NCBI GenBank assembly: GCA_965649215.1
Contig: CBFGJZ010000001.1
Span: forward strand, 129,549-163,782
Direction: 5' to 3'
Source: a candidate division WOR-3 bacterium
Lineage (GTDB): Bacteria > Hydrothermota > Tepidihabitantia > Tepidihabitantales > CAIPLT01
Length of the DNA stretch: 34,234 nt
Below, piece by piece: positions 3,638 to 15,035 of this stretch; position 1 is the stretch's first letter, and each line of letters opens with the position of its first letter. The notes below the pieces were generated by a model. The model had not been told where the DNA came from, ran no database searches, and saw nothing but the letters and a program-made list of their open reading frames with translations. Made by a program: the position numbers and the translations under genes.

Positions 3638-5440
3638 ATGGAGAAAGAAAAAATAACTCGTATTTTAGCAACTGATTGTGGTAGTACCACAACGAAAGCA
3701 ATTTTAATTGAAAAGCAAGCTAATGGTGAATATCGATTAAAAACCCGCGGTGAAGCACCAACCACAGTTGAAGCGCCATTTGAAGATGTGACCCGAGGTG
3801 TTTTAAATGCAATTCGAGAGGTTGAGGAATTATCCGAACGGGTAATATTAGAAGGCGAAAAGATTATAAAACCAAAAAAGAGCGACCGAGAAGGAGTTGA
3901 TGTCTATATTTCTACTTCTTCAGCGGGTGGTGGTTTGCAGATGATGGTAGCAGGTGTTGTGTTAACGATGACCGCAGAAAGTGCAGCCAGAGCAGCTTTA
4001 GGTGCCGGTGCAATTGTGATGGATGTAATTGCTTCCAACGATGGTCGCTTACCCCACGAAAAGATTGAACGAATTAGAAATTTACGACCGGATATGATTT
4101 TGTTATCCGGTGGCATTGATGGTGGTACGATTTCACATGTGGTTGAATTAGCTGAGCTGATACGTGCTGCGGACCCCCGACCACGATTTGGTACGGGCTA
4201 TAATTTGCCGGTAATTTATGCGGGTAATAAAGATGCTCGTGAATTAATATTAAAGACCTTACAAGATAAAAGTGCTTTAGTGATTGTTGAAAATTTACGA
4301 CCAGTTTTAGAGCGTGAGAATTTGTTGCCCGCTCGTCATCGGATTCATGATTTGTTTATGGAACATGTGATGGCGCACGCGCCGGGTTATAAGAAATTAA
4401 TGGAATGGACTGATGTCCCGATTATGCCAACACCGGGAGCAGTTGGTTTACTGATTGAAAATCTTGGGAAGAGTGAAAAGATTGATGTCTTAGGTGTAGA
4501 TATTGGAGGTGCGACAACCGATGTCTTCTCGGTCTTTAGCGGTATCTTTAATCGTACGGTGAGTGCTAATTTGGGTATGTCGTATAGTATTTCCAATGTT
4601 TTGGCCGAAGCCGGTGAAGATAATATTATGCGCTGGATTCCTTTTGAGATCGCTACCTCAGATGTGCGTAACCGCATCCGTAATAAAATGATTCGACCAA
4701 CCACGATTCCCTCAAGCCTGCAAGAACTGAAAATTGAACACGCAATCGCTCGGGAAGCATTACGTTTAGCATTAGAGCAACATAAGTCAATGGCAGTGGG
4801 TCTTAAAGGTGTCCAACAAGAACGAACGATTTCTGATGCATTTGCCCAAACTTTATCCGGAGAAACTTTAGTGAATATGATGAGTTTGAATTTGATTGTT
4901 GGTTCGGGTGGAATCTTATCGCACGCGCCAAGAAGGGTGCAGGCAGCGTTAATGATGATTGATGCATTCTTACCTGAAGGGGTTACGCGTTTAGCTGTAG
5001 ATAGCATCTTTATGATGCCACACTTAGGCGTTTTAACTGAAGTCCATCCCGAAGCCGCTAATGAAGTGTTTGTGAAGGATTGTTTAGTGAAACTGGGAAC
5101 TTGTATTGCACCGGTTGGTGAAGGAAGACAAGGCAATCGCTGTGTAACTGTTAAGTTTACTGACGAGCAAAAACAAGAGCAAGAAGTTCAAGTCAATTAT
5201 GGCGATATTAAATTAATTCCAATGGGTAATGTTAAAACCAAAGCAATCTTAAAACCTGAAAAGGGATTTGATGTTGGTGGTGGTCGGGGTAAAGAGATTG
5301 AAAGTGAGATTGAAGGAGGTGTGGTTGGTATTATTATTGATTGTCGGGGACGAAGACCGTTTGTGATTCCCCAAGATGCAAGACAAAGAATTGAATTTCT
5401 CCAAAAGACAGCCGAAGCGCTTAACGCGTATCCCAAATAA
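3638..5440 (+). CDS. Glutamate mutase L (GlmL/MutL)-like ASKHA-fold ATPase, long form
   Basis: Phosphate-1 motif TDCGSTTTKA, TSSAGGGL, LSGGIDGG, IMPTPGAV, phosphate-2 motif VDIGGATTDVFS, RTVSANLGMSYS, adenosine motif GSGG; 600 aa. Confidence 0.85.
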   Translation: MEKEKITRILATDCGSTTTKAILIEKQANGEYRLKTRGEAPTTVEAPFEDVTRGVLNAIREVEELSERVILEGEKIIKPKKSDREGVDVYISTSSAGGGLQMMVAGVVLTMTAESAARAALGAGAIVMDVIASNDGRLPHEKIERIRNLRPDMILLSGGIDGGTISHVVELAELIRAADPRPRFGTGYNLPVIYAGNKDARELILKTLQDKSALVIVENLRPVLERENLLPARHRIHDLFMEHVMAHAPGYKKLMEWTDVPIMPTPGAVGLLIENLGKSEKIDVLGVDIGGATTDVFSVFSGIFNRTVSANLGMSYSISNVLAEAGEDNIMRWIPFEIATSDVRNRIRNKMIRPTTIPSSLQELKIEHAIAREALRLALEQHKSMAVGLKGVQQERTISDAFAQTLSGETLVNMMSLNLIVGSGGILSHAPRRVQAALMMIDAFLPEGVTRLAVDSIFMMPHLGVLTEVHPEAANEVFVKDCLVKLGTCIAPVGEGRQGNRCVTVKFTDEQKQEQEVQVNYGDIKLIPMGNVKTKAILKPEKGFDVGGGRGKEIESEIEGGVVGIIIDCRGRRPFVIPQDARQRIEFLQKTAEALNAYPK

Positions 5441-6971: not shown

Positions 6972-7556
6972 ATGAATATTGTAAAGATTAAAAGAGAAAT
7001 AATTGAATTGGGTAAATTTCTTTTCAAAAGAGGTTATATTATTGCCAATGACGGCAATCTGAGTGTGCGTTTATCGAAACAGGAAATGTTAATTACGGCT
7101 CGAAATGTGAATAAAGGTGAACTTAAAAGTAGGGATCTTATTAAATTATCACTCAATGAGCAAATTAAGGATTTAAGAGAACTTAAAATAAAACCATCAA
7201 CTGAATACCGTCTGCATTTAGGTATCTATCAAAAGCGAAATGATATTAATGCAATTATTCATGCGCATCCGTTATATTCAACAATCTATGCGGTGTTAGG
7301 TAAAAAATTGGATGTTAATTTATTGACTGAGACCGCGATGACTTTGGGAGCGATTGGATATGTTAAAAATTATCCGCCCGGTAGTTTAGAATTAGCTACT
7401 GCAGTAGCCCAAAGCGCAATTAATAGTAATGTGATTCTTTTGGCAAAGCATGGGGTAGTGGTAATTGGTCAAAACTTACGAGAAGCACGCGATCGGCTGG
7501 AGCGTTTAGAGTTTTTAGCCAAAATTAGTTTTTTATTGAGTGTTTTTAGAGATTAG
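6972..7556 (+). CDS. Class II aldolase/adducin family protein (FucA/MtnB-like)
   Basis: GNLSVR, PSTEYRLH (catalytic Glu region), metal ligands IHAHP and LLAKHGVV. Substrate cannot be assigned. Confidence 0.92.
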   Translation: MNIVKIKREIIELGKFLFKRGYIIANDGNLSVRLSKQEMLITARNVNKGELKSRDLIKLSLNEQIKDLRELKIKPSTEYRLHLGIYQKRNDINAIIHAHPLYSTIYAVLGKKLDVNLLTETAMTLGAIGYVKNYPPGSLELATAVAQSAINSNVILLAKHGVVVIGQNLREARDRLERLEFLAKISFLLSVFRD

Positions 7557-7998
7557 GTGTTTGTAAGCCTACTGAAAAACTGAGACCTTTCGGGAGATAA
7601 CCACCGGCAGACCAAAAGTAACGAGTACCAATTGATAATAATGATATGGGATAGAAATTAGTATAGAATTCATAAGCGGTTGGTTGTGGTGAAGATTTGT
7701 TATTGGATTTTTTTGTAAAAATGGAGGTAACATCAAAGCCGAAACCAAACTCTACTTTATCGCTTTTACTAATCAGATATAAAGGTATATATCTACCCTT
7801 AGTCCCATTATTTGGAGCAGGTGAATAGTAATAACCGACGCCGATATTGATAAGATGAAATTCAGCCCCATAATAAAATCTACCTACTGAAGCAATGAGA
7901 TTAGCACTTAGTGAAATGTTTTTACCTTCGGCATATAGATTATTCGTTAAAATGATACTTAAAAAAATTATCGCGATGATTACAAGATGCTTATTCAT
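7546..7998 (-). CDS. Hypothetical secreted protein, beta-strand rich (possible small outer-membrane protein)
   Basis: Sec-type signal MNKHLVIIAIIFLSIILTNNLYA; alternating aromatic/Gly strands; 2 nt from the stop of the upstream lipoprotein gene. Confidence 0.7.
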   Translation of the reverse strand: MNKHLVIIAIIFLSIILTNNLYAEGKNISLSANLIASVGRFYYGAEFHLINIGVGYYYSPAPNNGTKGRYIPLYLISKSDKVEFGFGFDVTSIFTKKSNNKSSPQPTAYEFYTNFYPISLLSIGTRYFWSAGGYLPKGLSFSVGLQTPNL

Positions 7999-8000
7999 AA

Positions 8001-8654
8001 TTAGTTTTTACTACTCCTTTTTTCTAATAAACTGAGTCGGACATAAGTACTGCCAACCGTATACTCCATTTTGACCATGCCAAGGTCTTTTTGATAATAT
8101 TGGATAATTTCCCAAACTGGATAGGTTTCATCATCTGAGTTAGAAAGTTTTAAAGAGATTTTCCAACAATCTTGATAAGAATCAACATCTTCTAAAGATA
8201 AAACTTCACCTTTAACCTGATTGTAACTTTGTAAGAAAAAGCCATTTTTTCGTTTTAGTTGCCATTTGCGTCCGACATAAATGGGATAACGAAGATAAGG
8301 AATTGGATATTCATCATGGGGATAGGTTTGATAATTGTAAAAACCAAAATCATCTTGGGCATGATAAGTCTGTAAATACCAGACAAAACCACCGGATTGA
8401 TTATAAGCATATCGGTGTTGCGGATACATCACAACGCCATCAATTATCGTATCTTCATCATAAATCCACTCGACCTTACTGACACCAGCATAACTGGAAC
8501 TATTTACACTGTAAACATCATAAATATAGATATCTCCAGCATTGATGGGATTTAATTCTTTACCAACTGAAGCAACGAATGGCTGAAATGGTCCATCACA
8601 AGCAATAGTTAGTATTGTTAAAATAATACACCAAAAATAAATATTTTTTAACAT
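8001..8654 (-). CDS. Hypothetical lipoprotein
   Basis: Hydrophobic N-terminus with lipobox-like LTIAC (Cys19); Tyr-rich beta-type body (YLRYPIYVGRKW, YYQKDLGMVK). Confidence 0.75.
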   Translation of the reverse strand: MLKNIYFWCIILTILTIACDGPFQPFVASVGKELNPINAGDIYIYDVYSVNSSSYAGVSKVEWIYDEDTIIDGVVMYPQHRYAYNQSGGFVWYLQTYHAQDDFGFYNYQTYPHDEYPIPYLRYPIYVGRKWQLKRKNGFFLQSYNQVKGEVLSLEDVDSYQDCWKISLKLSNSDDETYPVWEIIQYYQKDLGMVKMEYTVGSTYVRLSLLEKRSSKN

Positions 8655-8690: not shown

Positions 8691-9054
8691 GATTAGATGG
8701 TTGTTACTCATAAAATAATGTGGATGATGATTGTATTTCTGAAGTTTGTCTTTATTTTTATAGTGAAGATAGGAGGAATTTGAAAAGTATGGTTTGAGGA
8801 GTTATTAATTTTGTCATATTGATTATTATCTTTGGAATTAGTGACTATTTATAACCATAACCTGCAAATAAATATGGGAGGTGTGCAATTATAAGAGAAT
8901 CGATTAAAATGTTCATTACCTCAACCAAAGATCAAGGAGGGGACTATACCATTCTTTTCTTGATTTTTGATATTAATTATTGGTTATAAATGGGTTAGAA
9001 TAAAAATTGTGTCGGTAATGGTGTTAGTTATAACTAACGGTCTTTAAGTTGTCA

Positions 9055-10014
9055 TTAGGACATACTTTCAGACCATTTACCACAGCGGTCACCATAACGA
9101 TCAATTAAGTTTTGGGCTCGATAGGTCTCAATGATTTCACAGTTATTAGGGCAGTCAGGACATTGAAATGCTTTAGTTGTAAAATTAAGCTCGACAATTT
9201 CAAAGCCGGCAAAATTAGTTGTTTTTTTCATTTGGTGTTGTTCTTGAGCTATAAGGGCAGCACCAATTGCACCCATTGTGAGAAAGTGTTCAGGTACAAT
9301 CACCAGTTGATTTAAGGCTCGTTCAAAGGCAGTTTTAACTCCAATATTTGCTGCAACTCCACCCTGAAAGAGAATTAACGGTTCAATTTTTTTACCTTTG
9401 GCAACAGTATTAAGATAATTACGGACAATGGCATCACAGAGCCCTTGAATAATATCTTCAACCGCAATACCTAATTGGGCTTTATGGACCATATCACTTT
9501 CGGCAAAGACAGTGCAGCGACCGGCAATCGTAATTTTATTTTTTGCTTTTAAAGCATAACTGCCAAATTCTTGAATCGGAATACCCAATCGAATTGCTTG
9601 ATGTTCTAAAAAGGAACCGGTACCCGCTGCACAGACATTATTCATGGCAAAATCAATAGGAATGCGGTCTTGGAGGACAATGATTTTTGAATCTTGACCA
9701 CCAATTTCAATGATTGTACGGGTCTCAGGATAATAATAAGACGACGCTAATGCATGGGCAATGATTTCATTTTTTATGACATCAGCACCAATCATGACAC
9801 CAGCTAAGCGACGGGCTGAACCAGTCGTGCCTACTCCAACAACTTTGATATGTTTAACTTGAGCTTGTAAAGATTTTAATAAGTTCTTAATGGCAAGTAA
9901 GGGATTGCCTTGGGTCGCTAAATAGGTTTGCGCTACTACTTGACGGTCGCGAGTAATTAAAACACCTTTGGTTGAAATAGAACCAACATCAACACCTAAA
10001 TAAACTTCGGTCAT
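9055..10014 (-). CDS. ATP-dependent [4Fe-4S] activase (HgdC/BadF-BadG/BcrA-D family) with extra C-terminal Cys motif
   Basis: GVDVGSISTK, GTTGSAR, IEIGGQDSK, MNNVCAAGTGSFL, RCTVFAESD, QGGVAAN, GAIGAAL; C-terminal CPDCPNNC...GDRC. Confidence 0.93.
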   Translation of the reverse strand: MTEVYLGVDVGSISTKGVLITRDRQVVAQTYLATQGNPLLAIKNLLKSLQAQVKHIKVVGVGTTGSARRLAGVMIGADVIKNEIIAHALASSYYYPETRTIIEIGGQDSKIIVLQDRIPIDFAMNNVCAAGTGSFLEHQAIRLGIPIQEFGSYALKAKNKITIAGRCTVFAESDMVHKAQLGIAVEDIIQGLCDAIVRNYLNTVAKGKKIEPLILFQGGVAANIGVKTAFERALNQLVIVPEHFLTMGAIGAALIAQEQHQMKKTTNFAGFEIVELNFTTKAFQCPDCPNNCEIIETYRAQNLIDRYGDRCGKWSESMS

Positions 10015-11081
10015 AATTGTTTAATTTTAGTAGATTTTTTACGTCTTTTAAGTAAATCAACAAAAGCTTCTAAGCGAGTTAATAAACCAACATGTGAGGT
10101 ATGTTCGTCAATTGATAAAGAGAGGATTGGTTTTTGTAAGTCCGCACTTATTTTCTGGAGCGCTTCAAAGGCAATATTTTCAGGCATACAAGTAAAGGGA
10201 TAGATGTGAATAATACCATCACAATCATTTTTTAGAAAATAATGAGCTTCGCCTACCGTGGTCATAGCTTCTCCACCGGGTGAATTTAAGAGATAGGGGT
10301 GGGCCTGCCGTTCGAATTTATAATGTAAATAGTCAATTTTGAGGAGATGTTTTAGGTGACGATATAAACTTCTCTGACTTAATACTAACACCTGCATTTT
10401 GCCTAATTCTTTTTCAAGATTATGATTGGCAAAATGTTCAAGCATAATATAAATTTCCCCGACCAACCCAATCTTAATAGTATCATTAGGTATACTTTGA
10501 GAATCTTTAAATAACTCGTCAATTAATTTTTTAGTCTTTTTAATTTGCTTTAGAGTCTGGATTTGATTTAACCAAATCAATGCTTGTGCTTCTTGGTCGA
10601 GTGATTTTTGATAATTGTTGACCCGAGCTTTTCTTAAAAAATTGCGAAAACGGTCGATTAAAGCAGCATGCTGAAATAACAGGTAAGTAGCGCTAATGAC
10701 TTTGGCAGAAGAGACTGAAAAGATTTGTGGTATTTTAGAGAAAATGAATTCTATTGGTGTATATTGACTGATTGCATAAAATCGATGATGATTGGTAATT
10801 GTTTTAAGAATACTTTCTTGGAGATAATGATAATAGCCAAATCGGCACTTTCGCGCACCGGCGGCCATAAAAAGGGTATCGGCACCGCTTTCTAACGCTT
10901 CAATTAAATTGCCTAAAGTAATTTTAAAGGGTAAACAGATAAGTTCAGGTGCATATTTTGTGCCTAATGCTAAAGTTCGATCGGTTAATGGCGGGGGTAA
11001 GACAACTTCAGCACCGAGATTTTTAACAAAGGTTTTTAAGGCAATCGTATCATACCCAAGATAAGGAAAAGCAACTTTCAT
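10011..11081 (-). CDS. 2-hydroxyacyl-CoA dehydratase-like Fe-S reductase subunit (PlsR-like)
   Basis: PELICLPFKITLGN, KCRFGYY, IGLVGEIY, PFTCMPE, IDEHTSHVGLLTRLEAF; ATGA overlap with the activase gene. Confidence 0.85.
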   Translation of the reverse strand: MKVAFPYLGYDTIALKTFVKNLGAEVVLPPPLTDRTLALGTKYAPELICLPFKITLGNLIEALESGADTLFMAAGARKCRFGYYHYLQESILKTITNHHRFYAISQYTPIEFIFSKIPQIFSVSSAKVISATYLLFQHAALIDRFRNFLRKARVNNYQKSLDQEAQALIWLNQIQTLKQIKKTKKLIDELFKDSQSIPNDTIKIGLVGEIYIMLEHFANHNLEKELGKMQVLVLSQRSLYRHLKHLLKIDYLHYKFERQAHPYLLNSPGGEAMTTVGEAHYFLKNDCDGIIHIYPFTCMPENIAFEALQKISADLQKPILSLSIDEHTSHVGLLTRLEAFVDLLKRRKKSTKIKQL

Positions 11082-11123
11082 AAGAGAAATGTTAGATTTT
11101 ACTAATCTTAAGGTTATGAATTT

Positions 11124-12005
11124 TTAATTTTGACATACCTGTCTGCGTTTGATAATTTCACTAAACGCTTCTAAACGCGTAATAAGCCCAGTTTTAGAAG
11201 TATGTTCGTCAAGAACGATTTGTAAAAATGGGATGTTCTGCTTTTGGGCTTGGGATTGCATAATTTCGGCAATGAGTGAGTCAGGTCCACAACCAAATGA
11301 GATGATATCGCAAATACCAGCGACTTTATCAAGTGAATATTGAAAAGCATTATATAATTCTCGCTCATAAACCCAACGAATATTTTTACTAAAACCACGA
11401 TCGGACTTAAGAATTTCTACAGGGAGATCTTCTTTGGTGATAATCATAAAACCTTGGTTTTCTAAAGTACGAATAATATCTTGGCTGATAAAATCGTCCG
11501 ATAAATTGTAAAAATGACTTAATAGTAAGATTTTGGGTTTCTGATTTAAGGTAGTTAAGGGGCGATGTTCTAAAAAGGGCAGGGCTTTGGTTATTGCTTT
11601 ATAAACTGAGTAAGGATTTTTTACAAGACGAATGCCAAAGAGATAATGGGCAAAAAGAAAATGATTACGAATTTGAGGTGCGAGGATTAGACACTCATTA
11701 CCAATTAGTAAACGAGCAATATCAACAATCCCAATCATTTTCGGACAGGTATATAGACCATGATTTAATTGAGTAATTCGCGGTAAGAATATTGCATCAA
11801 CCTTTCCTTTAAGCCAATCTAAATGTCCACAAATGATTTTAACAGGAAGACAGATTTCGCTGTTTACTTGTTTAAGTCCGATATCTAATATTTGTTGGTT
11901 GGTGGGCGGAGAGACCACGATAGGAATATTAAGGTTTAGAAAAAAATGCTCCCAAAACTTACCATAGCGGAAGTAAAACAGGGCTCGGGGAAGACCAATT
12001 TTCAT
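11124..12005 (-). CDS. DUF2229-type activase-associated Fe-S reductase/dehydratase subunit
   Basis: Likely start MKIGLPRALF at 12005, since the track's start at 12047 falls on the -35 box. EICLPVKIICGH, YTCPKMIG, SFGCGPDS, LDEHTSKTGLITRLEAF. Confidence 0.85.
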   Translation of the reverse strand: MKIGLPRALFYFRYGKFWEHFFLNLNIPIVVSPPTNQQILDIGLKQVNSEICLPVKIICGHLDWLKGKVDAIFLPRITQLNHGLYTCPKMIGIVDIARLLIGNECLILAPQIRNHFLFAHYLFGIRLVKNPYSVYKAITKALPFLEHRPLTTLNQKPKILLLSHFYNLSDDFISQDIIRTLENQGFMIITKEDLPVEILKSDRGFSKNIRWVYERELYNAFQYSLDKVAGICDIISFGCGPDSLIAEIMQSQAQKQNIPFLQIVLDEHTSKTGLITRLEAFSEIIKRRQVCQN

Positions 12006-12018
12006 AATTATCTTATTT

Positions 12019-12047
12019 AGTGTATGCGGATAAATATTAAAAGTCAA
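12019..12047 (-). promoter_or_regulatory. Sigma70-type promoter of the activase/reductase operon
   Basis: TTGACT (12047-12042), 17 nt, TACACT (12024-12019), 13 nt before ATG 12005; no SD motif. Confidence 0.6.
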
Positions 12048-12074
12048 TATTTATGACTTATTCTTATAAAAGTC

Positions 12075-12116
12075 TTGACATAACAATAGTCGCACATATA
12101 ATATTGTTGATATAAT
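12075..12116 (+). promoter_or_regulatory. Sigma70-type promoter(s) of the pilT-plsY-gpsA operon
   Basis: TTGACA (12075-80), 16 nt, TATAAT (12097-102); a second extended -10 TGaTATAAT at 12108-12116. Confidence 0.7.
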
Positions 12117-12150
12117 TTTGTGAAAGTATTAATGATATTATAAAATTTTT

Positions 12151-13278
12151 ATGATTACTACGAAAAGTGAAGAAGAACGGTATTTTGAATATTTATTAGA
12201 TGAATGTATTCGTAGGAATGCTTCCGACCTGCATTTGACAGTTGGCTTACCGCCAGTTTTACGTATTGATGGGGTATTACGACCACTTGAGAAATCAGCA
12301 ATTTTAAATCCTGAATTTACAGAAAAGATTAAAGACATTACGGTCGAGAGTGCGCCGCAAATTAAGCATCTCATTTCGGAGGACGGGGGTGCGGATTTTA
12401 GTTTGGATTATAAACGCATAGCACGATTTCGAGTTGCGATCTATCGGCAGAAAGGGTGTTATGGATTAGCATTACGACTGATTCCGAATAAAATTTTACC
12501 CTTTGAAGAGATTGGTTTTTTGCCCAATCAAATATCACGGATTAAAAATCTTTTAGACCGACCGCATGGTTTAATTTTAGTAACTGGTCCGACCGGCTCG
12601 GGCAAGACCACAACGCAAGCAACTTTTGTAGATTATATTTTAGAAAGTCCCCGTCATGTCTTGACCATTGAAGACCCGATTGAATTTGTACACAACCATA
12701 AAAACGGACTCATCACCCAACGGGAAGTAGGTGTTGATGTGCCATCTTTCCGAGAAGCGATTATGAAGGGATTGCGTTCTAATCCGAATGTAATTTTAGT
12801 CGCTGAGATTCGAGATGTCGCGACTGCGGAAGCAACGATCTGGGCTGCCGAATCAGGTCATTTAGTAATTGGTACTTTACATACAACCAATGCTGCAGAA
12901 ACAGTAACTCGTTTTATCGATGTCTTTCCACCTGAGATTCGAGATCAGATTCGGATTCAGTTTTCAATATCGCTTTTAGCAATTTTTGCTCAACGACTAT
13001 TACCTCGCGCAACTGGTCGAGGGCGAATCGGTATTTTTGAAATTATGATCGCAACCCCGGCAGTTAGAAATTTAATTCGCGAACGAAAAATTGAGCATTT
13101 ACCCTCAGCAATTCAATCCTCAGTTGCCGAAGGAAGTTGTACTTTCGACAGCGCTTTGGCAGAACAATATCGAGCGGGTAAGATTACTTTCGAAACTGCG
13201 TTAGCAAATGCTTTTGATGCTCGAGCGCTACGGGAAATGGTTGAATTCGGCATGAAAAGCCGTTTTCAAAAAACTTAA
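12151..13278 (+). CDS. pilT: PilT/PilU family type IV pilus retraction ATPase
   Basis: ASDLHL, Walker A GPTGSGKTTT, Asp box TIEDPIE, His box GHLVIGTLHT, AVRNLIRE (AIRNLIRE-type motif). Confidence 0.9.
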   Translation: MITTKSEEERYFEYLLDECIRRNASDLHLTVGLPPVLRIDGVLRPLEKSAILNPEFTEKIKDITVESAPQIKHLISEDGGADFSLDYKRIARFRVAIYRQKGCYGLALRLIPNKILPFEEIGFLPNQISRIKNLLDRPHGLILVTGPTGSGKTTTQATFVDYILESPRHVLTIEDPIEFVHNHKNGLITQREVGVDVPSFREAIMKGLRSNPNVILVAEIRDVATAEATIWAAESGHLVIGTLHTTNAAETVTRFIDVFPPEIRDQIRIQFSISLLAIFAQRLLPRATGRGRIGIFEIMIATPAVRNLIRERKIEHLPSAIQSSVAEGSCTFDSALAEQYRAGKITFETALANAFDARALREMVEFGMKSRFQKT

Positions 13279-13324
13279 TCAGAAATTTTATTGAAGGATA
13301 TTAAGGGAAGGGGGAAGAGGAAGG

Positions 13325-13966
13325 ATGTTTTTATTAGTGATATTCCCTTTTCAGAATAATTTTTTAATTAATTACTTCTTTTCATTATTTGTTGGTTTTA
13401 TTTTCGGTAGCATTCCGTTCGGTTATTTGATTGCCAAGTTAAAAGGCATTGATATCAGACAATATGGAAGTAAGAACATTGGTTTTAATAATGTCCGACG
13501 AGTAGTGGGTCTTAAATATGCCATACCAGTGCTAATTTTAGATATTGCCAAAGGGTTATTGCCAGTGGTTTTCGCAGCACAATTGGAAGCGATTCCAATA
13601 ATGGTTGGTTTAGGAGCCATTTTAGGACATAGTTTTACACCCTGGCTTAGTTTTAAAGGTGGCAAAGGAGTGGCGACCACAATTGGCGTGATTCTTGCCT
13701 TGATACCGTGGTCACTCTTGGTTGGGATAGTCGTTTTTATAATTGTCGCATTGCTTTTTGCGTATGTGTCATTAGCTTCAATGGCATTGGCAATTTCCTT
13801 ACCAATTAGTGTTGCTTTACTTTACCCCCAAGAGCAATTGATTTTAATAATTACAATTGCAATCGCCTTATTGATTATTTTACGACATCGCGATAATATT
13901 AAAAGAATAATCAATGGTACGGAACCGAAAATTGACCGAGCCAAATTTTTTCGTTTACCGAAATGA
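13325..13966 (+). CDS. plsY: Glycerol-3-phosphate acyltransferase PlsY
   Basis: GSIPFG, DIRQYGSKNIGFNNVRR, DIAKG, GHSFTPWLSFKGGKGVAT, RHRDNIKRI. Confidence 0.96.
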   Translation: MFLLVIFPFQNNFLINYFFSLFVGFIFGSIPFGYLIAKLKGIDIRQYGSKNIGFNNVRRVVGLKYAIPVLILDIAKGLLPVVFAAQLEAIPIMVGLGAILGHSFTPWLSFKGGKGVATTIGVILALIPWSLLVGIVVFIIVALLFAYVSLASMALAISLPISVALLYPQEQLILIITIAIALLIILRHRDNIKRIINGTEPKIDRAKFFRLPK

Positions 13967-14028
13967 GATTACTGAATATGCAAATTAGCGGGAATCAAGA
14001 TAGTTTAATGAAAAGATTAGTTGAATGA
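13963..14028 (+). CDS. Putative 21-aa micro-ORF bridging plsY and gpsA
   Basis: MRLLNMQISGNQDSLMKRLVE*. ATGA overlap with the plsY stop (13963-66) and with the gpsA start (14025-28). Confidence 0.35.
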   Translation: MRLLNMQISGNQDSLMKRLVE

Positions 14029-15035
14029 AAATAAGTTTTATTGGCGCTGGTCGCTGGGCAATTACTTTAGCTTTAGGATTATGGCAAAAGCATTATGATA
14101 TTTTAATGTTAGAATTGATAGAGGAACGGCTTCAATTTATAAATGAAAAACACATAATACCTGAATTACCGCCGAATATCACAATTTCTAAAGAGATAAC
14201 GATATGTAATGAAGTTGAACGAGTCTTAGATAACCCTGATATTATTTTCTTTGCGGTACCAGCTCAGGTCTTACGGACAGTATTAATCAATTTAGCGACC
14301 TATCATTTTAATACCAAAAAGCCAATTTTAGTAAGTGCGATGAAAGGACTGGAAAATAATACCTATAAAAGAATGTCAATGGTTCTAAAAGAATTTTATC
14401 CTGACCTAAAAATTGTTGTTTTAGCAGGACCCGGGATTCCTTATGATATGTTACTGGCAAAGCCAACTTCGTTGGTTGTAGCGGCGGAAGACAATGAGTC
14501 GGCTCAATTCATTCAAGAGATTTTAGCGAGTGATCAGTTACGCATTTATCGACAAAATGATGTAGCGGGTGTTGAGTTGGGTGGCGCTTTAAAAAATGTA
14601 TTAGCTATTGCCGGAGGTATTTGCGACGGTCTTAATTTAGGTGATAATGCCAAAGCAGCCATTATCACACGAGGACTTTCAGAAATGATTCGTTTTGGGA
14701 TTGCTTACAATGCTAATCCAATGACTTTTACCGGTTTATCAGGAATTGGCGACTTAATGGTTACCGCCTATTCTGCGCATTCCCGTAATCGCTTATTTGG
14801 TGAAAAGATTGGCCAAGGTTTTTCGGTTCAAGAGGCATTACAGTCTTTTAATGGCGTGGTTGAAGGATATACGACGACGATGGCGGTTCAGAAAATGAGT
14901 AATAAAATGCGACTGGAATTACCAATTATTGCAGAGATTACAGAAATTTTATATAATAATGCAAATTTAAAACAAAGTATAAAACGACTAATGCAAAGAC
15001 CACTTAAAAAAGAAACATTCCATGACCATGATTAA
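14025..15035 (+). CDS. gpsA: NAD(P)H-dependent glycerol-3-phosphate dehydrogenase
   Basis: Rossmann GAGRWA, AMKGLE, GVELGGALKNVLAIAGG, GLSGIGDL, SRN; adjacent to plsY. Confidence 0.95.
   Translation: MKISFIGAGRWAITLALGLWQKHYDILMLELIEERLQFINEKHIIPELPPNITISKEITICNEVERVLDNPDIIFFAVPAQVLRTVLINLATYHFNTKKPILVSAMKGLENNTYKRMSMVLKEFYPDLKIVVLAGPGIPYDMLLAKPTSLVVAAEDNESAQFIQEILASDQLRIYRQNDVAGVELGGALKNVLAIAGGICDGLNLGDNAKAAIITRGLSEMIRFGIAYNANPMTFTGLSGIGDLMVTAYSAHSRNRLFGEKIGQGFSVQEALQSFNGVVEGYTTTMAVQKMSNKMRLELPIIAEITEILYNNANLKQSIKRLMQRPLKKETFHDHD

Follow-up and report, generated by a model that had tools for sequence, protein, structure and literature searches.

A complete split member of the PlsA/PlsR/Ger reductase superfamily in a candidate division WOR-3 bacterium and its possible role in ether-lipid synthesis

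Non-isoprenoid ether lipids and the brGDGTs (branched glycerol dialkyl glycerol tetraethers) derived from them serve as environmental proxies and are relevant to the "lipid divide". In genome surveys, the producers of these lipids are sought with full-length PlsA or Ger. Whether an enzyme of this type could also be assembled from the products of separate genes is the question raised by a locus in a candidate division WOR-3 bacterium (Bacteria; Hydrothermota; Tepidihabitantia; Tepidihabitantales; CAIPLT01; GenBank assembly GCA_965649215.1). The locus belongs to a stretch of 34,234 nucleotides (contig CBFGJZ010000001.1, positions 129,549 to 163,782 of the forward strand), referred to as the window, within a genome of 1.64 Mb and 95% completeness. 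Three closely spaced open reading frames (ORFs) on the minus strand of the window, arranged in the order ALPHA, BETA, and ACT, span positions 12047/12005 to 9055. A preliminary description of this DNA had read them as a fully split build of PlsA/PlsR and Ger, situated next to two glycerophospholipid genes, and had proposed that they reduce acyl esters to vinyl or alkyl ether lipids.

ALPHA (11124..12005) encodes a reductase subunit of about 293 aa, the counterpart of Red1 in fused PlsA/Ger-type proteins. If translation began at the TTG at 12047, further upstream, the product would have 307 aa (ORF 11124-12047); judged from the alignment, the ATG at 12005 (MKIGLPRAL...) is the likely start because 35 relatives align from there. 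BETA (10011..11081; 356 aa) is a second reductase subunit corresponding to Red2, the PlsR-like part, and its stop codon shares a 4-base overlap with the start of ACT. ACT (9055..10014; 319 aa) is a single-domain ATP-dependent electron activase with a C-terminal tail of four cysteines. In Pfam, ALPHA is covered over its whole length by PF09989 (DUF2229; 122 bits), the N-terminal part of BETA matches the same family with 51 bits and is followed by an HGD-D match (PF06050) of 20.4 bits, below the cut-off of 28.4, and ACT contains one domain only, PF01869 (BcrAD_BadFG; 169 bits). The NCBIfam search returned TIGR00241 ("acyl-CoA dehydratase activase"; 195 bits) for ACT and no model matching ALPHA or BETA. 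Both reductase subunits terminate in DEHTS..GL.TRLEAF. Three cysteines of ALPHA (C66, C101, and C253) occur without exception in 38 of 38 split sequences and in the Red1 part of 11 of 11 fused ones; for three of BETA (C49, C79, and C298), the same holds in all 12 aligned split and Red2 sequences. C128 and C167 of ACT, invariant across 60 split, 19 Act1, and 19 Act2 sequences, are presumably the pair that holds the bridging [4Fe-4S] cluster in HgdC-type activases. The C-terminus of ACT reads FQCPDCPNNCE...GDRCGKW, and its four cysteines (C285, C288, C292, and C311; F.C..C.N.C...G.RC) recur in all 60 split activases and all 19 Act2 linkers, being absent after Act1. The paralogous subunits with three cysteines each, the DEH...TRLEAF ending, and the single-domain activase with its cysteine tail, all listed in the preliminary description, were thus found in place.

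A chance juxtaposition of the three genes is excluded by their conservation. Orthologous loci were collected by taking about 19 kb around each of 24 orthologues together with three loci from named records, and the ALPHA-BETA-ACT order is kept in 24 of these 27; family f4 accounts for the three loci that depart from it, and the two of these that were scanned (L046 and L047) carry a HAD-type hydrolase gene after BETA. Beyond WOR-3, a scan of species genomes confirmed 541 relatives, and ACT adjoins one or more reductase genes in 35 of the loci of the best 80. The trio is the only DUF2229 system in its genome, where the sole other activase is paired with an HGD-D protein at another locus.

As references for the fused architecture, 15 proteins of 1352-1457 aa were extracted from other WOR-3 families. 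In 15 of 15, ACT, ALPHA, and BETA are collinear with Act2-linker, Red1, and Red2, in agreement with the earlier reading of the trio as a fully split Act-Act-Red1-Red2 build. ACT aligns end-to-end with Act2 plus linker, tail included, at 44-47% identity (36-46% against Act1), ALPHA aligns with Red1 at 25-31%, and residues 2-350 of BETA align with Red2 at 22-28%, each over the same 15 proteins. ALPHA and Red1 have in common, besides the three cysteines, K70, H75, Y180, D184, W225, the DEH motif, and R291, as well as the ending DEH..G..TR.E.F. When a profile of 36 split ALPHA sequences was aligned to one of 19 Red1 domains with hhalign, the match extended over 307 columns with a probability of 100 and an E-value of 2e-67, whereas the ALPHA profile matched the HGD-D protein of its own genome with an E-value of 3.4e-5 over only 64 C-terminal columns. 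The grouping with HgdAB/FldBC, which the preliminary description had named as the outcome that would contradict it, is therefore not what these profiles give. The trio comprises PF01869 with two cluster cysteines, a cysteine-rich segment, Red1 with three cysteines, and Red2 with three cysteines; tandem activase domains on one chain (BB), as in every validated enzyme, were not found, ACT having one PF01869 domain. Taken at the level of sequence, it is near certain that the trio represents a complete split member of the PlsA/PlsR/Ger superfamily, i.e., of the DUF2229-type ATP-dependent iron-sulfur reductases. The existence of fused forms argues that the split subunits would bind each other.

The likeness extends to the characterized systems. 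PlsA/PlsR of Clostridium perfringens (CPE1194/1195) and the single-gene PlsA of E. faecalis, L. cremoris, and B. longum share with the window proteins an activase, a Cys-rich linker, Red1 (DUF2229), Red2 (DUF2229/HGD-D), and the cluster cysteines, and their chemistry is described as oxygen-sensitive, based on [4Fe-4S] clusters, and driven by ATP (PMC12838417). They differ from the window in their organization, which is Act1-Act2-Red1(-Red2) rather than three genes in the order Red1-Red2-Act, and in having two activase domains rather than one. The window reductase subunits are 22-31% identical to those of the fused forms and fall in a sister clade, the named PlsA/PlsR being compared by description. 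Ger and PlsA are described as having two activation domains, which are accompanied by a reduction domain and additional D/H pieces (PMC13159169, PMC12838417). In Ger (T. maritima Tmari_0479/AGL49404.1; D. alkenivorans SHJ90043), these D/H pieces are resembled by the Pfam pattern of BETA, D then H, and the fused WOR-3 relatives have the same overall B-B-Red1-Red2 layout as Ger; the difference is that Ger is a single chain of about 1400 aa in which the activase domain occurs twice (BB) (PMC13159169).

Relatives of the trio are named "2-hydroxyacyl-CoA dehydratase", as had been anticipated from the sequence, or "activase-related protein". These names would imply a classical dehydratase of the HgdAB/FldBC type that works with its activase in amino-acid fermentation, a reading to which the weak PF06050 match in BETA and a weak match to 3o3m_B (E 1.3) also lend themselves. 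The searches of the ALPHA and BETA sequences against solved structures gave chance-level matches only (E 0.7-1.3). However, PF06050 stays below its cut-off in BETA and is absent from ALPHA, ALPHA resembles the HGD-D protein over its 64 C-terminal columns only, and the tail of ACT is specific to the DUF2229 type. In addition, no CoA-transferase or 2-hydroxyacid dehydrogenase family was present among the 31 ORFs scanned in the 34-kb window, which agrees with what had been noted before. A fermentative dehydratase is therefore highly improbable. Enzymes of this class and their kin, HadBC (3o3m), HgdAB/HgdC, BzdNO (8s02), MbdON (9g87), and DCCP/DCCP-R (6eno, 7yyl), share with the trio the subunit fold and an ASKHA activase with bridging cluster; they are distinguished by PF06050 where the window proteins have PF09989, and the window activase has the extra Cys tail and no CoA-transferase context.

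What, then, might a split enzyme of this superfamily do? The three genes almost certainly specify one enzyme between them, a split, three-subunit, ATP-driven iron-sulfur reductase, in which a homodimer of ACT may take the place of the Act1-Act2 pseudo-dimer of the fused enzymes. ACT would accept a low-potential electron, hydrolyze ATP, and pass the electron into the ALPHA/BETA heterodimer, where ketyl-type radical chemistry on a carbonyl could take place. The predicted substrate is the sn-1 acyl ester of a membrane glycerophospholipid, which would be converted into a vinyl or alkyl ether. The making of ether lipids by the trio is the best single reading of the sequence, and one that could equally well turn out to be wrong; that the trio is the sole ether-lipid synthase of a WOR-3 order lacking fused PlsA/Ger is put forward more tentatively still. 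A lipid role is plausible in the light of three lines of comparison, namely published lipid tables, a complementary distribution of split and fused forms, and gene neighbors in other phyla.

The first of these lines concerns strains with a single activation domain. Table S21 of PMC13159169 contains 11 cultured strains that have alkyl and/or vinyl ethers and a single "B" protein as their only Ger homologue, next to three such strains without ethers. A correlation of one activation domain with plasmalogen production is stated in section 18 of PMC13274423. According to its Table S7, the ether-positive strains T. wiegelii, M. thermoacetica, C. owensensis, and F. ferrireducens each encode D(+H), H, and B in consecutive genes and lack a BB protein. 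The loci entered there as "architecture 3a" are Thewi_0343-0345, Maut_01420-01422, Maut_01662-01664, Calow_0537-0539, and Calow_1244-1246 (PMC13274423 Table S7), so that the split build is already in print, albeit with no assigned role. The Bacillota loci listed in that table have the same three-gene build with a single B as the window (PMC13274423); they differ from it in that the window type is a deep branch of its own, restricted to a single WOR-3 order. A further connection was obtained with a profile of ten Bacillota split BETA sequences, which had proteins of Thermosediminibacter oceani and Ca. Syntrophonatronum acetioxidans among the best 120 of 4275 matches. Both organisms appear in Table S21 as "B-only" ether-positive strains (PMC13159169), their split BETA proteins lie on the same, split side of the beta tree as window BETA, and the T. 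oceani protein is 35% identical to window BETA over the full length.

The second line is the distribution of the two forms within WOR-3. Of the 25 other genomes of the order, 24 yielded the window-type module and the 25th showed only a paralogue. The fused form was found in none of the 26 genomes of this order, as against 11 of 12 from the sister families f5-f8, which belong to the same class. This complementarity points to a lipid role and is suggestive only, since the pattern amounts to a single evolutionary event. In the sister genus, one locus (L039) has the gene for a CDP-alcohol phosphatidyltransferase immediately upstream of the module, and in another (L040) it is one gene away. A paralogous WOR-3 pair, alpha'/beta', had no recurrent lipid genes among its neighbors in nine loci and is thus uninformative on this point.

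The third line is drawn from the best 80 loci outside WOR-3. They belong to Bacillota (Halanaerobiales, Sporomusa, Alkalithermobacter, and others), Dehalococcoidia, Atribacterota, Syntrophobacteria, Actinomycetota, many Melainabacteria, one Patescibacteria genome, and two Asgard archaea; the last are Ca. Lokiarchaeum ossiferum and a Promethearchaeum metagenome-assembled genome (L140, L171, L195-L197, and L199). Lipid or hydrophobic-carrier genes adjoin the split module independently in at least four phyla. An MMPL gene is present in nine loci, with or without a LolA-like gene after the module, LolA or a LolA-like gene in three, an acyl carrier protein (ACP)-like gene in six, and FabD in six. 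The ACP-like gene stands directly upstream of ALPHA in three Actinomycetota loci, ACP and FabD lie nearby in three Dehalococcoidia loci, and LolA and two ketoacyl synthases follow the module in one locus (L149).

These same neighbors bear on a rival proposal, namely that the substrate of the same machine is a fatty acyl thioester (acyl-ACP or acyl-CoA) or another envelope lipid in place of the glycerol sn-1 ester, in which case an unusual lipid would result, possibly one exported to the outer membrane. The ACP, FabD, ketoacyl synthase, LolA, and MMPL genes would fit such a pathway, as would the presence of split and fused forms together in some genomes, which is taken up below. Moreover, the HAD and BCR members of the remaining superfamily act on thioesters. 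Yet none of the ACP, FabD, LolA, MMPL, or ketoacyl synthase neighbors is found at the window locus or in its WOR-3 ortholog group, and nearly all residues conserved in Red1 are kept in ALPHA. Furthermore, according to the two surveys, split-only strains make ethers and have no other known anaerobic route to them (PMC13159169, PMC13274423). A thioester or envelope-lipid substrate is the strongest of the rivals and is nevertheless considered unlikely for the window enzyme.

Some split modules elsewhere depart from the three-gene form or stand in other company. Five deltaproteobacterial loci have alpha and beta joined in a protein of about 740 aa. Around such alpha-beta fusions of deltaproteobacteria/Syntrophobacteria (L112:6690-9575; L115, L122, L134, L141, and L154), ACT is convergent and an MMPL transporter gene adjoins, and in L112 an N-terminal CrtC-type lipocalin domain has been added to the alpha-beta protein, which counts as a further lipid context of a split module. 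In Halanaerobiales and another Bacillota genome (L097, L124, and L145), the split module directly follows spoVAD-spoVAC-spoVAE-spoVAF(GerA), and downstream of the module lie either MMPL and a LolA-like gene or OEP and HlyD.

Against an ether-lipid role of the trio stand several observations, the first of which come from phylogeny. Before tree building, rows were thinned at 62% identity (beta from 139 to 44, alpha from 92 to 49), and a joint tree of the 93 alpha-type and beta-type sequences was calculated with a quick IQ-TREE run and SH-aLRT support; a beta-only tree of 50 rows was made after L197_Red2, which had a very long branch in the joint tree, had been dropped. The joint tree separates alpha/Red1 from beta/Red2 with 100% support. 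On its beta side, the fused Red2 domains group together (94), and so do all split forms (85); in the split group, the window type (100) branches as the sister (91) of all the remaining split forms. The alpha side has the Red1 clade (98) inside a polytomy of split forms. In the beta-only tree, fused and split forms are divided by a 100% branch. As far as these trees go, the split trio is an old sister subfamily and not a recent fission nested in the fused forms, and because split and fused forms are sister clades, function is not transferable between them by orthology. The window type is, moreover, the deepest branch of the split family, and the fused forms in the trees were taken from WOR-3, Sporomusa malonica, and Ca. 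Lokiarchaeum ossiferum alone, with no characterized PlsA, PlsR, or Ger among the rows. To our knowledge, and with no literature search aimed at the point, there are no lipid data for WOR-3 bacteria.

Further points of this kind arise from genome content. Ca. Lokiarchaeum ossiferum has three fused proteins of 1423-1431 aa and two split pairs, Sporomusa malonica has one fused protein and two split pairs, and the coexistence of both forms in these organisms and in several WOR-3 genomes suggests that their roles differ. The split family is probably functionally diverse, since many genomes carry two split modules, and the ACP-adjacent versions suggest thioester substrates. The position of plsY and gpsA, which the preliminary description had taken as functional evidence, cannot be used in this way: pilT-plsY-gpsA adjoins the module in two of the 27 orthologous loci only (L042 and L094), both from close kin, and in the window itself pilT intervenes and the genes lie on the opposite strand. 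Conserved plsY/gpsA synteny as an argument for a lipid role was rejected on the basis of this count. A different gene is the constant companion of modules of the family-f2 type, in which the gene directly after ACT, on the same strand and in some cases overlapping with it, encodes a Memo-AMMECR1 fusion of about 500 aa in 14 loci; 12 of these are f2 loci (L051-L062) and two are from named records (L095-L096), an example being L053:10924-12513. In the genome of the window, the Memo-AMMECR1 gene is unlinked (G000:C22:8694-9188). Judged by title and abstract, six papers with the term "AmmeMemoRadiSam" appear to have no bearing on this link.

The literature, too, contains contrary entries. In the supplementary text of PMC13159169, it is called unclear whether one activation domain suffices for a functional protein. 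For Dictyoglomus thermophilum and Thermotomaculum hydrothermale, the only Ger hit is a single-"B" protein and no ether lipids are recorded; even the fused Ger homologues from T. geofontis and Kuenenia did not lead to ethers when present in E. coli (PMC13159169). The role of extra homologues lacking an activation domain is called unclear by the authors of PMC13274423, in whose Table S7 Caldanaerobacter subterraneus features a split module and no detected ethers.

The Memo-AMMECR1 partner of family f2, which has no known lipid role, also belongs to the case for another alternative, according to which the trio is an ATP-dependent reductase or dehydratase of a non-lipid small molecule, comparable to DCCP, and its lipid neighbors are coincidental. 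Housekeeping genes adjoin the module at most WOR-3 loci, as this alternative would have it, and the folds nearest to ALPHA are of this type: an AlphaFold model of ALPHA (pLDDT 95.4), when searched with Foldseek, had its best matches in DCCP (6eno, E 1.7e-8), HadBC, and BzdNO, and thus among DCCP and the BCR/HAD subunits. With E-values from 1e-8 to 1e-4, TM values of about 0.5, and 10-13% identity, however, these modeled likenesses should be read at the superfamily level only, and sequence profiles place ALPHA far nearer to Red1. DCCP, which works with DCCP-R, is a single HGD-D-type subunit forming a homodimer, whereas the window has two paralogous DUF2229 subunits (TM 0.53, 13% identity). A DCCP-like role is better suited to the separate HGD-D and activase pair of the same genome, and the lipid or hydrophobic-carrier neighbors in at least four phyla run counter to coincidence. 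A non-lipid substrate is accordingly regarded as rather improbable, more so than a thioester or envelope-lipid substrate.

Were ether-lipid synthesis by the split form to hold true, one homodimeric activase with an alpha/beta reductase would constitute a complete ester-to-ether enzyme. This would offer a simple answer to the puzzle of ether-positive strains with one activation domain, as stated in two papers (PMC13159169, PMC13274423), and it would account for plasmalogens and alkyl ethers in Thermoanaerobacter, Moorella, Caldicellulosiruptor, Ammonifex, and other "single-B" strains. It would also follow that surveys with full-length Ger overlook a large share of the potential ether-lipid producers among bacteria and some among Asgard archaea. 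The Ger survey set its threshold at a query coverage of at least 30% (PMC13159169); by our arithmetic, split subunits of 293-356 aa remain below it with a Ger query of about 1400 aa. Lineages overlooked, if the split form is active, would include WOR-3, Dehalococcoidia, Atribacterota, Melainabacteria, Syntrophobacteria, many Bacillota, and some Asgard archaea. The window taken by itself adds modestly to this picture, in that its compact and intact 3-kb operon provides a test case for the question raised in the two papers (PMC13159169, PMC13274423).

Around the trio, the window has the following arrangement. ALPHA and pilT are separated by a divergent intergenic region of 145 bp (12006..12150), counted from the ATG at 12005, so that the shared region of about 145 bp given in the preliminary description for the trio and pilT-plsY-gpsA is correct. 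By pattern matching only, a sigma-70-like site with 12 of 12 matching positions was located on its plus strand at 12075-12102, upstream of pilT; the best such site on the minus strand reaches only 9 of 12 (12047-12019). Beyond this region follow, on the plus strand and each recognized by Pfam and NCBIfam, pilT (12151-13278), plsY (13325-13966), and gpsA (14025-15035), which are regarded as context rather than as parts of the module. The other genes of the window encode gcvP subunits, a PF13941 protein, serS, a class II aldolase, two ORFs without a family, merR, an SPFH gene, the dcw cluster, and uvrB.

On the other side of the trio, the only terminator-like hairpin of the region (8926-8969; 18 pairs, with a T-run on the plus strand) is positioned about 90 bp past the ACT stop, between the trio and the two family-less ORFs. 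These two ORFs, of 217 and 150 aa, lie downstream of ACT on the minus strand (7546-8654), have no Pfam or NCBIfam match, and are preceded by a sigma-70-like site matching 12 of 12 positions (8690-8663). They probably form a separate, recently acquired unit because they are missing from the syntenic relative L042. The PF13941 protein (3638-5440, plus strand; 600 aa), of the "MutL" or glutamate-mutase-associated ASKHA type, is encoded just downstream of two glycine-cleavage P-protein subunits and has a weak BcrAD_BadFG match as well. The second radical-enzyme pair of the genome (G000:C3:106363-108548; L004, L202), unrelated to the trio, consists of the 457-aa HGD-D protein and a 244-aa activase without the Cys tail, and is DCCP- or YjiL/YjiM-like. 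In 13 relatives, the match to this HGD-D protein splits into two adjacent pieces (about residues 1-335 and 366-456), and the intervening residues, about 336-365, may reflect an insertion in the protein described here or a frame change in the relatives.

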